Source of the DNA: Eledone cirrhosa
Taxonomy: Eukaryota
Direction: 5' to 3'
NCBI GenBank assembly: GCA_964016885.1
Contig: OZ024742.1
Location: 111,228,001-111,292,000 of the forward strand
DNA: 64,000 bases
Shown: positions 1,703 through 55,875 of the stretch, in pieces
How the letters are laid out: each line of letters starts with the position of its first letter
Position numbering within the stretch: the first letter of the stretch is position 1
The notes under the pieces: model-generated
The model's database searches: none
Seen by the model: only the letters and a program-made list of their open reading frames with translations
What the model was told of the DNA's origin: nothing
Made by a program: the position numbers and the translations under genes

Positions 1703-2118
1703 AACGTTGTCATCGGACAACCGGTGTATCTTCGACCGTTCTGTCACTCACTCAATACTTTAATTAAGCCAGCATCATTAGGATACCAACCAAAAGGAAA
1801 GCAGAGTGCACACTTATACGTTAATAGTGAGATAGGCGATATCGTGTGGGTAGAGAATTTAATTCTCTGTCTCCGGACAGGGCACTAATTTTTGTTACCC
1901 TGTCTACTGGCGGCAGTCCATGTTGGACTAGCTTGTACAGAAATTAGTTAATCGGCAAAGAATAACTTCATCGGCGGGGAGTTAGCCTCCTCAGAACAGG
2001 TCGAACATTAGCCCGCTGTATTCGGTGTGGAATGGCCGTAAACAGTAGTCCGCACCACTTTCAGTAGTATTCAACTGTGTAAACGAAGCTTTAATTTTTA
2101 AATGCCTGTAAAACACAC
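1703..2118 (-). mobile_element. Probable PLE terminal-repeat fragment
   Basis: Complex sequence abutting a (TA)n tract. Carries the shared terminal motif (tCACTCAATAC, 1748-1758) and a CTGAGGA-ggc...gcc half-hammerhead on the minus strand. Confidence 0.3.
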
Positions 2119-2137
2119 ATTATATATATAGCAAAAT

Positions 2138-2714
2138 GGCGGTGGATTGGCAGTATCGGTGGAGGGTCGGACGCCATGCTTTCCAGCATAGTTACGTCCC
2201 TTTACGATCTGAGTTCAAATCCTGCCGAGGTTGACTTTGCCTTTCATCCTTACGGGGTCGATAAAATAAAGTACCAGTAATGCACTGGGTAATCGCTGGC
2301 CTTGTGCCTAAAGTAGCAACAATTATTAAGGGCGGTGGATTGGCAATATTGGTAGAGGGTCGGACGACATGCTTTGACGTATAGAGTTACGGCCCTTGCC
2401 TTTCTGAGTTCAAATACCGCCGAGGTTAACTTTGCCTTTCATCCTTACGGGGTCGATAAAATAAAGTACCAGTAATGCACTGGGTATTTGCTGGCCTTGT
2501 GCCTAAAGTAGAAACAATTATTAAGGGCGGTGGATTGGCAGTATTGGTAGAGGGTCGGACGCCATGCTTTGACGTATAGAGTTACGGCCCTTTCCTTTCT
2601 GAGTTCAAATCCCGCCGAGGTTAACTTTGCCTTTCATCCTTACGGGGTCGATAAAATAAAGTACCAGTAATGCACTGGTGAATTGCTGGCTTGTTCCTAA
2701 CGTAGAAACAATTA
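2138..2714 (+). mobile_element. Head-to-tail trimer of full-length SINE family A
   Basis: Three ~195-bp units start at 2138, ~2330 and ~2525, each with an A-box-like TGGCAGTATYGGT and B-box GAGTTCAAAT. A 17-bp direct repeat ATTATATATATAGCAAA lies at 2119-2135 and 2711-2727. Confidence 0.9.
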
Positions 2715-2770
2715 TATATATAGCAAATGAAAAGAAGCTTACGTGTAATCAATCATCTGTCTGTCTGGAA

Positions 2771-2921
2771 CCACACACACACGCACACAGCCATACACAC
2801 ACGCACACGCACACATACACGCACGCACGCACACACACACACACACACACACACACACACACACACACACACACACACACACACACACACACACACACAC
2901 ACATACACACACACAAACACA
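2771..2921. repeat. (CA)n microsatellite, representative of dozens of (CA)n, (TA)n, (CT)n and (ATGT)n tracts in the window
   Basis: Directly visible; these tracts explain most HT/YI/CV/ER/SL ORFs in the supplied track. Confidence 0.99.
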
Positions 2922-52250: not shown

Positions 52251-52457
52251 CAGTAATGCATATATATATATACATATATATATATATATATATATATATA
52301 TATATATATATATATATATATATATATATATATATATATATATATATATATATATATATATATATATATATTATAGATTAATTTATATATATTATAGATA
52401 TATATATTATAGATATTATATATATATATTATAGATTAATTTATATATATATATATA

Positions 52458-52620
52458 AGTTCATCCCGGGTTCAATCGGTGGTAACCACAGCAAGTAAGG
52501 TACTCAATACACAGCAGAGTGTAAATATTTAATATAGAAAGGGCTTCTACAGGACTAGAACTGTTTCATTTGGGAGAAATCATCAGGAGGCCAGCTTCCT
52601 GATGATTTCATGAATTTCAT
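52458..52620 (-). mobile_element. Short hammerhead-bearing element (family of 30442-30612) with 5' inversion
   Basis: Minus strand ggcctc-CTGATGA-tttctcccaaat-GAAA-cag(ttctagtc)ctg-TA-gaagcc; inverted gcttcCTGATGAtttc at 52595-52610. Confidence 0.7.
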
Positions 52621-53188
52621 ATGCGTGTGTGTGTGTGTCTGTGTGTGTGTCGGTGTGTGTGTGTCGGTGTGTGTGTGTATGTCTGTGTGTTTGTTTGAGT
52701 GTGTGTGTGTATGTGTGTGTGTGTGTGTGTGTGTGTACCTTTTTGTGGGATAATATTTTCAGTAATAATCTTATTGATTTTTACATTAGCTTACCTAAAT
52801 TACGTTCGGCTACATAATTTCGCTGGAAGTATGGCCGATTAAATTTCCCAGAATATATAACTAGTATTTGCGTCAATCGATACTGACAGGATGAAATTAA
52901 ATTAACCTAGGATAGATTTGACAGAGAATGTCAATATTCATAAATAAATATCACATTTTATCCATTTTAATAATTTGGTAAATCCAACGCTTCATTTTAT
53001 TATACATGTATAAATAGACTTTGAATGATATATTTTAAATTGTAGAATCTATTTTTATTATATATGTAAAATAATTAGTCGGCGCTACTACAATTTTATT
53101 TTTCGATGGCGGAAATGTTTATGTGAATATTATGTAGATACAGACTCTTCCTAAAAATGTGGTATGATGCATTTCGTTGATCGTCACA

Positions 53189-53239
53189 AATGTATCTGAA
53201 CGTATCTGAATGTATCTGAATGTATCTGAATGTATCTGT
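53189..53239. repeat. Tandem repeat (AATGTATCTG) x5
   Basis: Directly visible. Confidence 0.9.
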
Positions 53240-55875
53240 CCAAATAATAAAACAAGAAAAAATAAATACTTGCTACTTGAGTCGTGATGGTACTATAAGT
53301 TAGTTCTGCATTACGGTAGAAGACAGAACTGGAATGAATATGTGTTGATGTTAAACTAATTCTACCACCTCATATTATTGCTATTATCCCCGCTGTAATA
53401 TATCTACTACTGTGAACTCTTGTCTGAGTGGTTACGATTTACACCTGGCTATCATGAGATATATTGGTTAATCTCACTGTCATATCTTCGGGTTGACCTC
53501 CTAATCACTATGAGGGATATTTGTTAGCCGGAGGTATTGAATTAGTAATTGAAAGATCCATCTTACATAATTCTGTTCCATTGATCCTGGCTGATAATTA
53601 TGTTGAAGGTAGACGTCTTTATGTAATACGAAGTCATTAGCACATGAATGCACGCGTCGAACGTAAATGTTTATCGTCGAAACAGAAATTGAAAATGACA
53701 AAAGATCAGTCATATCTAATAGTGACTCGATTACAGTATTGCAAATAGTAAATGTACAATAGACGCGTTATTATGTGATTTTATTTCACTGACAACAGAT
53801 ACAGAAAAATACAGTAGTATTAAGATAAGTTATATTTTACTATTGTATGTCCAGTTCTTATACATAAGAAGCTTAAAATTCGATAGGTTTTCCTCGCTAT
53901 AAAGTAAAGACAGAGTAAATAATTCTTTACCATAGACGTCTTTAGATGTTTTCATCTAAACTAAGTCATTTACAAATTGTAAAGTTTGTTAGAGAACGCG
54001 AGACGTAAATCTAAATCTCAACATTTGCTCTCTCTCTCTCTCTCTCTCTCTCTCTCTCTCTCTCTCTCTCTCTCTCTCTCTCTCTCTCTCTCTCTCTCTC
54101 CATCTCTTTCCCTCTCTTTCTCTCTCTCTCTCTCTCTCTCTCTCTGATATATATATATATATATATATATATATATATATATATATATATATATATATAT
54201 ATATATATATATTTGTTTCCCTGAAACATTGTTGAATATGAAACAAATTAAAATAATTCTAAAAATCAATACAATGCACTAGAAAATTACCAAGATAACA
54301 ATAAAATCTTACCTTAGCAAATTTAATAATCCCAAATATAAAGGTTTAAAAACCAATTATTTAAACCCGAAAATATTTGGGATTATTAAATTTGCTAAGC
54401 TTAGATTCTATTGTTATCTTGACAATTTTTATTTTCTCGTACATTGTATGGTTTTCAGAATTACTTATATTTGTGTTTCATACACACACACGCCCTCGCG
54501 CGTGTGCACGCTCAAGCACACACACACACATATATATATATATATATATATATATATAACGAAGGAAATGTGGTAAGGAACCAGGTGGACCATAACGCAC
54601 AAAAGTACTCAATACTTGAGGTAGTAGAGTGGGTAATAGGAACCAGTAAGACCCCGACAGCTGAGCTCAAGCCGTTTCGACGGCTAATTCTGGACTAAAT
54701 GAAAATTTATCCTGGTATTTAAATAGCCGATCTTCTCAAGGGGTAATTCCATATATGGTCAAAGTGATTGTCAAAAATCAGTAGTAATTCTGTGGTTGCA
54801 AATTAGTAGGGGAGATGGTGGCTAAACCTGCCAGTAGGAGAAAGAGGGGAGGGGGTGGAGTAAGCCCCAATCAAGCGTTTGTAGTGCCAGCTACAGCTGG
54901 GCATGAGGTCAAAGAAAATACAGGGGGGGGGGGGGGAGGGGGAGGAAGTCGGAACGGTAGGTAGAACAATGGGGGGTAGAAAAATATAGGAAAGAAAAAA
55001 TTCTGAGAGTGAAGAAAAGCAAATAAGTGTAAAGAAAAACAAATGAGTGTAAAGAAAAAAGTAAAGTAAATTAAATTCTACGACCTAAGTCTCTAGCTAT
55101 TGTTAGTCTAGAATAAATAAATAAATAAAGAAAGAACGAAGTAAAGAAAGAAATAAAGAAATAACGAAATACGTAAAAGAACTAGGTGGGACGGATTAGG
55201 CGAGGATCCTTTTAAGAGGTATAAGTACGTAAATGATACGGTGACGGGTCAACAAAAGGGGCCAAAATACTAAAGAGACTACCACGAAATAAACAATAAA
55301 GGTTTCCATCCCGGGCACAATTCCAGCAACCACCCAGTGCAGCAAAGTGAACTAATACGAGATAATAATTCTGAGTCCCGAGAAAAATATATACTAATGC
55401 TAACTCTAAAAGATCTAAAACAAGCTACATGAAAGTTCGTACGAAGTAAAGGTAGAATACGGAAGAATAAATTCAGAATCCACCCCGCCCAAAAGAAAAG
55501 CGTAGAAAGAAATACTGAAACGAAAAAATAAGGCATAAGTGCCACTAAGAAATATAGAGGGCACAGAGAATAGTGGGAGCGGTCGGAAAAAGGGGACAAG
55601 TATCCGGGGTCTAAACCAACTGCTATAAAGGGCGGAGTCCGCCAAATCTATCCTAGACTAGGGGAGGGGGTGGGGGTACTAAGGCTACAAGGGGCCAAAG
55701 GGCAGCCTCGGGTGGGCGAGAAAAGACGCCGACAAAGGAGAAGAGCTGGGGTAGAAGGACTAAGGAGAGAGGGGGGAAGGAAGGAAATAAAGGAAGCGAT
55801 AAAAGAATACAAAGAAGATCATACGTCTCCCTTGGCAAGCAGGGGTTACCCATTGCAAAATCGGCAAGTGTGGTG

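Follow-up and report, generated by a model that had tools for sequence, protein, structure and literature searches.

To our knowledge, two questions about Penelope-like elements (PLEs) have been open since the elements were described, namely how their reverse transcriptase (RT) chooses its start and why only one of two inverted arms carries a tail. Among described PLEs, the closest to the case treated here are those of the Hydra clade, which are recognised by a GIY-YIG endonuclease at the C-terminus, RWK and DKT motifs, a CxCX5C linker, and CxxC and CxH, and which generally tend to be shorter than 3 kb (Craig et al. 2021, PMC8557442). In vitro, the protein of a Poseidon PLE extends both strands after nicking them, and the tail is bounded by two starts that lie internally (Frangieh et al. 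2024, PMC11167929). Statements on published work refer to the sections and consensus sequences of each source that are drawn on here. We set against these systems a stretch of 64,000 nt from Eledone cirrhosa (assembly GCA_964016885.1, contig OZ024742.1, positions 111,228,001-111,292,000, forward strand; genome ~3.0 Gb), hereafter called the window, to whose positions all coordinates refer. A first-pass annotation of the window had noticed an 11-nt motif (the 11-mer) close to the (TA)n junctions of several PLE insertions and had read it as a cis-signal. The 11-mer is not itself the signal but forms the 3' strand of a bulged hairpin that is small and conserved. The hairpin occurs twice in the leader of full-length Hydra-type elements, and there is a strong positional link between the two hairpins and both ends of the insertions.

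The bulged hairpin behind the 11-mer

All ten 11-mer sites reported earlier are present. Nine of them lie 41, 42, 42, 46, 44, 45, 40, 51 and 78 nt from a (TA)n tract; the two copies in the pseudo-long terminal repeats (pLTRs) of the near full-length element H had both been placed ~80 nt from the end, which holds for one of them (78 nt) but not for that at 34523, which has no tract. The proposed enrichment at such distances was borne out on a larger scale. Genome-wide, (TA)5 follows the exact 11-mer at 30-58 nt in 37,168 forward-strand matches, versus 111 for the reversed pattern; overlapping matches inflate the count for the reverse strand. In a random sample of the genome (60 stretches of 10 kb, 600 kb), 25/47 matches to GYAYYGAGY lay 35-54 nt from (TA)4, versus 0/20, 0/23, 1/48, 0/25 and 0/14 for five control patterns; 19 of these 25 matches belong to one family. 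The sites had been ascribed to otherwise unrelated elements, and this also stands: in alignments 3' of the motif, judged against 300 shuffles, the nine TA-flanked sites form six lineages, namely 30560 with 52500 (50936 weakly joined), 54605 with 47068, and four singles. A single alignable family is thus ruled out, as these lineages do not align beyond the motif and the N-termini of the coding partners are 25-52% identical, with one pair at 71%.

The hairpin, 20-30 nt in size, runs in the order RCUC, upper stem, a loop of 3 to ~100 nt, the other strand of the stem, a 2-nt bulge and GAGY. Its CUC/GAG helix is invariant and has an R-Y closing pair, the bulge on the 3' strand is U-led (UU, UC or UA), the upper stem covaries freely, and the loop can have any sequence. 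Many families swap the first three letters of the 11-mer yet keep the pairing. Because these letters change together with their pairing partners, a linear 11-nt site and a promoter element are ruled out; a promoter, or any double-stranded DNA site, would leave the covarying stem unexplained. Beyond the features listed in the first-pass annotation are the 5' partner strand, a second hairpin, and a further family at 30636-30860.

A strict hairpin pattern matched the window eight times versus 0.07 expected (100 shuffles), and the decayed copies at 47068 and 36600 escape it. Looser searches found many more families with different upper-stem letters that are still paired. When only the two 4-nt anchors were required, a stem of at least 3 bp was present in 24/47 multi-copy clusters at a bulge size of 2, compared with 6, 3, 2 and 5 of 47 at bulge sizes of 0, 1, 3 and 4. 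For 28 clusters to which no pairing filter was applied, the count of inner Watson-Crick pairs was 70 versus 39.6 +/- 4.6 with the arms permuted (0/10,000), a test in which the partner arm was selected by pair count. Two equal-length alignments showed 5/8 pairs changed on both sides and the CUC/GAG pairs invariant. One looser search returned 22 matches for each of its reversed and complement controls (13 near TA); these were poor controls, and the case is carried instead by the strict-pattern, bulge-size, permutation and outside tests. The pattern used for finding families is weakly discriminating (12,154 matches versus 6,124 in the control) and served that purpose alone; one family (L111) was found through its open reading frame (ORF) and not through the motif.

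Since the genome clusters contain loci picked with bulge-shaped patterns, an outside test on ORF-selected loci was required. For this, 78 metagenome-contig loci were chosen by protein similarity alone, from the best 80 of at least 250 confirmed stretches, and grouped into 62 families at 80% DNA identity. The strict hairpin was found in the flanks of 29/62 families, compared with 0 in antisense, 0 in reversed sequence, 0-3 in 20 shuffles, 4 with a 1-nt bulge and 3 with a 3-nt bulge. ACU usually follows the hairpin (49/60 in these outside families). In 71 hairpins selected by their anchors only, which together with the ORF-selected set provide the cleaner tests, the bulge-adjacent pair is canonical in 68/71 (46 C-G, 22 U-A) versus 38.4 when permuted.

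The hairpin is conserved across phyla. Judged by eye, it is clear in 3/6 published Hydra consensus sequences (one coral and two sea cucumber elements), one of which begins 2 nt before the first hairpin and holds both; of the other three, one is degenerate, one doubtful and one without a hairpin. A covariance-model scan of the window against Rfam gave no gathering-level match at the hairpin sites. A sub-threshold viral 3' untranslated region (UTR) match (E 0.46) overlaps 37160-37295, TA tract included, and the scan otherwise returned only low-complexity microRNA-type matches; a near-perfect 100-nt palindrome at 27283-27382 attracts chance matches of this kind. No description of the hairpin was found in the literature searched, a search that left figures, subscription papers, Repbase notes and preprint supplements outside its scope. 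It is a new RNA element within a known clade, one that we have not found in print.

Variants of the shape also occur. A Hydra-type family of this genome has a 1-nt bulge (L067, minus strand, near 3113 on that strand; ORF in L090), and outside families L206, L257 and L269 have different closing pairs or bulges. By eye, and with chance not assessed, the consensus 5' starts of Chlamys-4_cBra and Chlamys-6_cBra (Chara) show the same bulged shape, and a clam Naiad (Naiad_Mmer) shows it once, after its selenocysteine insertion sequence (SECIS); the remaining look-alike matches in the Naiad and Chlamys consensus sequences used are mostly inside ORFs.

Two hairpins, two insertion ends and the tail

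In full-length copies, two hairpins (hp1 and hp2) stand between the hammerhead-like motif and the start codon, ~55-90 nt apart; hp2 precedes the start codon by roughly 7-110 nt. Among the 43 outside families that offer at least 140 nt of 5' flank, 36 have a hairpin under a relaxed rule and 22 have two, spaced 55-74 nt in 21/22; the upper stem of hp2 begins C-G in 21/23 outside cases. In this genome, families have two insertion ends at (TA)n, a short end mostly 0-8 nt before hp1 and a long end 23-86 nt after it, positions that are uncertain by a few bases because of TA microhomology. An early survey gave 40/40 long and short pairs, but many of its loci had been selected by their long end, and it was repeated on 108 loci not chosen by the motif. 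There, in six families, 125/129 TA-junction ends fell within -12..+2 of hp1 (67) or hp2 (58; for family B, its decayed half), windows that make up ~14% of each reference. Inverted insertions in these loci combined a long with a short end in 19/21, with one short and short, one long and other, and no long and long. The earlier idea of a cis-signal tied to PLE end formation and common to unrelated families is thereby upheld. The proposed 40-46 nt ruler is not: across families the distance from the 11-mer to the end ranges from ~23 to 86 nt, the constant spacing is on the 5' side of the hairpin, and the 3' spacing is family-specific. The 40-46 nt are the spacing from hp1 to hp2 minus hp1 in the commonest families.

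A second hairpin was predicted to follow the long end directly in read-through copies, and this held in 10/11 families, among them the window's element H and three families that are intact. Family A has a complete hp2 in 9/12 loci; family C has one in 4/12, the others being mutated or chance matches; and it is present in 2/8 loci of the 36600 family and 5/8 of the 30636 family. For the 50936 family, exact read-through patterns found no read-through copy. The same kind of pattern gave no match for the 1748 family, where a DNA search then found 3/30 loci that read through, one with a perfect hp2 and two with one mismatch. Upstream of the hairpin, UAU/AUA triplets end 3-5 nt before it (counts 27, 34 and 25 versus at most 10 elsewhere) and are found at -11..-2 in 54/69 versus 12/69 control windows, with a peak at -5 to -3. 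The tail is the segment from just before hp1 to just before hp2, ~60-110 nt, since short ends precede hp1 and long ends precede hp2. At 36560-36653 (minus strand), the insertion between two (TA)n tracts comprises nothing but a tail, which extends from the hp1 base as far as the long end.

Some carriers have no ORF. The 1748 family is a 613-nt head-to-tail unit whose longest ATG frame has 54 aa; it has no match to 154 Hydra-type proteins, and its hp2 junction is identical in three loci. In the random sample, L091 is a tandem array of at least six 615-nt units that carry both hairpins, and the array has no frame of 60 aa; here the hp2 prediction also held, and the array ends in (TA)n 3 nt before hp2. 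We infer that both units are mobilised in trans. The earlier suggestion that the short elements lack ORFs is thus right for these two tandem families, but most short window copies are pieces, truncated or inverted, of ORF-bearing families: where a copy reads through, it runs into that family's own Hydra-type ORF. Rfam found no hammerhead in three loci of the 1748 family (L340, L343 and L352), which have only hammerhead-like cores. Instead of pure (TA)n, this family (L331-L360) often has ATT runs at its ends, next to a short repeat that recurs, and L340 has four tRNA-like matches. In six loci (L281, L282, L284, L288, L294 and L310), read-through leaders jump from the ORF start back into the 3' region of their own family, one of them as a 257-nt tandem; these may be births of ORF-less units.

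The coding partners and the elements of the window

The coding partners are assigned, on their motifs, to the Hydra type. Intact frames of 713-719 aa have the RT followed by a C-terminal GIY-YIG domain, and the window ORF at 55876-56862 aligns with the C-terminal half of full-length relatives. The RWK and DKT motifs are present in 3/3 intact ORFs checked, and an RW[KR] region is found in the N-termini of window families A, B, C, E and H and the 30636 family. The 3/3 intact ORFs and the window ORF have a CxCX5C linker, and around E and N they show CxxC and CxH instead of CCHH. A further Hydra trait, insertion into (TA)n, is present here, and hammerhead core-like patterns occur in A, B, H and many outside loci; Rfam gave no hammerhead match in the window. 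Family A repeats at ~3.53 kb, beyond the Hydra tendency in length. The partners had been called Naiad-like, but Naiad and Chlamys elements have an N-terminal GIY-YIG, a CxC domain and then the RT, and are ruled out because the endonuclease here is C-terminal. A SECIS was likewise set aside, the intact ORFs having no in-frame UGA. The AlphaFold2 model of an intact ORF (pLDDT 92.9) has telomerase reverse transcriptase (TERT) as its best fold match (TM 0.32-0.38), as would be expected for a PLE.

Window elements are given here on the minus strand unless stated. Family A is present as an inverted insertion at 54558-58157, with its long end at 54558 and its short end, on the inverted arm, near 58157, both abutting (TA)n. 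Its hp1 (54607-54630) contains the 11-mer at 54605 and has a 4-bp upper stem and a UU bulge. A hammerhead-like pattern match with a long stem II lies at 54674-54739; in this core, and in one at 31221-31243, U replaces the first core C, so that activity is doubtful. The Hydra-type ORF at 55876-56862 is 5'-truncated, comprises the end of the RT thumb, the linker and the GIY-YIG domain, and had no match to Pfam GIY-YIG. A relative of family A has a decayed hp1 (47070-47093) in an inverted insertion at 47023-47326 with a long and a short end. Family B has its hp1 on the plus strand (30550-30568) in an inverted insertion at 30444-30611, with its long end at 30611 and its short end near 30444. A subfamily of B has hp1 at 52502-52520, a long end at 52458 and a hammerhead-like core at 52563-52586, and a diverged B-related family has hp1 at 50938-50957 and a long end at 50893.

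In family C (hp1 37266-37290, long end 37218) the upper stem has 6 bp and the bulge is UC. The hp1 of family E (36602-36651) has a long loop, and the whole copy is the tail-only insertion mentioned above. The 613-nt tandem family has hp1 at 1750-1807 and a long end near 1696-1700. Element H has one hp1 in its 3' pLTR (31075-31146, long end 30994) and another in its 5' pLTR or leader (34525-34596). Its hp2 (34420-34435) is minimal, with 4 bp, a bulge, one C-G pair and a 4-nt loop, and stands 6-7 nt after the long-end position; 20 nt further on is the start codon (34399), from which a broken ORF, RT then GIY-YIG and by these motifs of Hydra type, extends to 31704. The further family is an inverted insertion at 30636-30860 (long end 30636, short end near 30860) whose upper stem starts C-G, with a UA bulge; in this copy only the 3' strand of hp1 is left, at 30690-30701. 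Elsewhere in the window are a decayed Helitron (41812-46341, minus strand; PIF1, Helitron_like_N), a weak match to a hepatitis delta virus-like ribozyme just beyond it (41427-41505, minus strand; E 0.047, below the gathering score), and a GIY-YIG ORF at 5251-6243 (minus strand) that is Neptune-like by the resemblance of its linker.

A proposed start signal and its relatives

We consider that the hairpin pair in the leader RNA is probably a dock at which the RT starts copying a few bases upstream. The GIY-YIG domain would nick both (TA)n strands and the RT would bind each hairpin in the RNA, so that each 3'-OH anneals to the UA segment just 5' of the hairpin, held in the RT active site, and the nicked strand primes there. 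Priming before hp2 would give an arm with the tail and priming before hp1 an arm without it, and two such complementary DNAs (cDNAs), joined at their truncation points, would leave inverted arms with one tail. A hairpin that sets a start would itself stay uncopied in the resulting insertion, and hp2 would therefore be visible only in read-through copies. These are few in family A (541 pattern matches versus tens of thousands of ends). Because a finished insertion would stop before hp2, an ORF-bearing long arm would need a tandem or circular template; tandem arrays of ~3.53 kb exist in family A. If the signal is the two hairpins, any RNA carrying both could be mobilised in trans.

Several results weigh against this reading. 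Family B has no paired hp2 in 12/12 loci despite its sharp long end, although a decayed 3' half of hp2 lies 9-12 nt downstream. Among the metagenome families, 20/62 have no anchor match, 7 of them with at least 140 nt of 5' flank, and copies end 1-4 nt before the hairpin in 12/22 cases (8 families) but not in the other 10. Predicted core pairing probability is 0.09-0.58 for most hairpins of four families of this genome, compared with 0.79-0.98 in three outside families. Evidence for the strand that folds is weak, with G-U 14 versus A-C 4 in the anchor-only hairpins (36 versus 26 when permuted) and G-U 7 versus A-C 6 in the genome clusters. Finally, a Nematis-like PLE of the window (19476-22240 and 49962-50300; clade by linker resemblance), with canonical hammerheads at 19717, 22031 and 50124, has inverted arms and two ends, the long one lying 57 nt beyond the short one, but no such hairpin, and the hairpin is therefore not a general PLE solution.

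Other explanations of the same ends have to be considered. The hairpin could form in single-stranded DNA, either cDNA or a displaced strand, and direct an adjacent GIY-YIG cut that resolves a longer intermediate into both ends. Covariation is blind to RNA versus DNA and the strand bias is weak; endonuclease-mediated resolution has been proposed for the tail (PMC8557442), and, according to work cited in PMC11167929, recognition by the D. virilis endonuclease depends on the tail. We nevertheless hold this to be unlikely, as the excess of G-U over A-C on the sense strand, such as it is, runs contrary to a fold in minus-strand cDNA, a target-like UA segment at fixed spacing suits primer annealing, and internal RT starts occur in vitro on RNA (PMC11167929). 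A slightly less probable explanation has the RNA cleaved, or its 3' end formed, just upstream at the direction of the hairpins; the RT would then start there by ordinary target-primed reverse transcription. This predicts identical genomic ends, and RNA-seq reads do end at the start sites of the Poseidon element; however, the main substrate there is uncut RNA with internal initiation (PMC11167929), and cutting would part the template from its signal. We give the least credit to an operator that binds protein and serves translational control or assembly in cis, with nearby UA microhomology setting the ends independently. It would suit the position of both hairpins in the 5' leader, hp2 ahead of the start codon, and the sharp long end of family B, but other UA runs in the leaders go unused, the ends follow the hairpin base across unrelated families and spacings, and ORF-less families retain both hairpins, down to the array that ends just short of hp2.

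If the paired hairpins do set RT starts, they may have a wider meaning, towards which we lean only slightly: the duplicated bulged hairpin would be the long-sought element by which the RT of a PLE clade recognises its RNA, positioning the template at two sites. Retained in cnidarians, echinoderms and other animals, it would programme the two ends of an insertion, account for the tail and for inverted arms, allow ORF-less passengers, and be a functional counterpart of telomerase-positioning RNA elements. Among retroelement RTs, those of PLEs are most closely related to telomerase, and a defined positioning element for such an RT would therefore inform the origin of templated, internally primed synthesis. 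The hairpins supply an annotation rule for the boundaries of Hydra-type elements and their non-autonomous partners, and possibly a handle for RNA-templated insertion at (TA)n. Were the look-alike shapes in the Chlamys elements of Chara genuine, the hairpin would extend beyond animals.

Recognition of an RNA structure in cis by an RT, with the structure shared by non-autonomous partners, is familiar from the stringent long interspersed nuclear elements (LINEs), such as the R2 3' UTR and the stem-loops of L2 and its short interspersed nuclear element (SINE) partners, and from epsilon of hepatitis B virus (HBV). Those structures are copied into the insertion or act as template, whereas the Hydra-type signal would stay outside the end that it sets. 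Animal non-LTR (long terminal repeat) retrozymes, like the 613-nt and 615-nt units, are ORF-less tandem units thought to be mobilised by PLEs (PMC7229834; bioRxiv 10.64898/2026.07.22.740005); in the sections used here they are defined by type I hammerheads, with no RT recognition signal named, whereas the units described above have only hammerhead-like cores.

Likeness to the Hydra clade (Craig et al. 2021, PMC8557442) extends from the protein motifs, that is, the C-terminal GIY-YIG, RWK, DKT, the CxCX5C linker and CxxC/CxH, to hammerhead-like cores, (TA)n targeting and inverted arms with a tail at one end. The differences are that the sections of that work consulted name the hammerhead as the sole RNA structure and give a tail of 30-40 bp, versus ~60-110 nt bounded by two hairpins here. 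With Poseidon PAc (Frangieh et al. 2024, PMC11167929), the Eledone elements share an AT-rich target and two starts that bound the tail, internal RT starts in PAc, where both strands are nicked and extended. In PAc, however, the starts are inside the ORF, in a stem-loop rich in AC that is described as sharing no homology with the target, and the parts of the paper drawn on define no conserved signal. In Eledone the mapped ends are in the leader, where a UA segment resembling the target precedes a conserved hairpin that is duplicated. A further parallel comes from telomerase RNA and the DRT10 noncoding RNA (PMC12632851), in that an RT related to TERT has one edge of its template set by a stem-loop, and the primer pairs with an alignment segment. 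The template boundary element of telomerase, on the 5' side of the template, brings copying to a stop. The hairpin described here is located 3' of the mapped ends and would begin copying instead, and long arms extend through hp1. Unlike the telomerase elements, the hairpin is part of the PLE's own mRNA and is present there twice.

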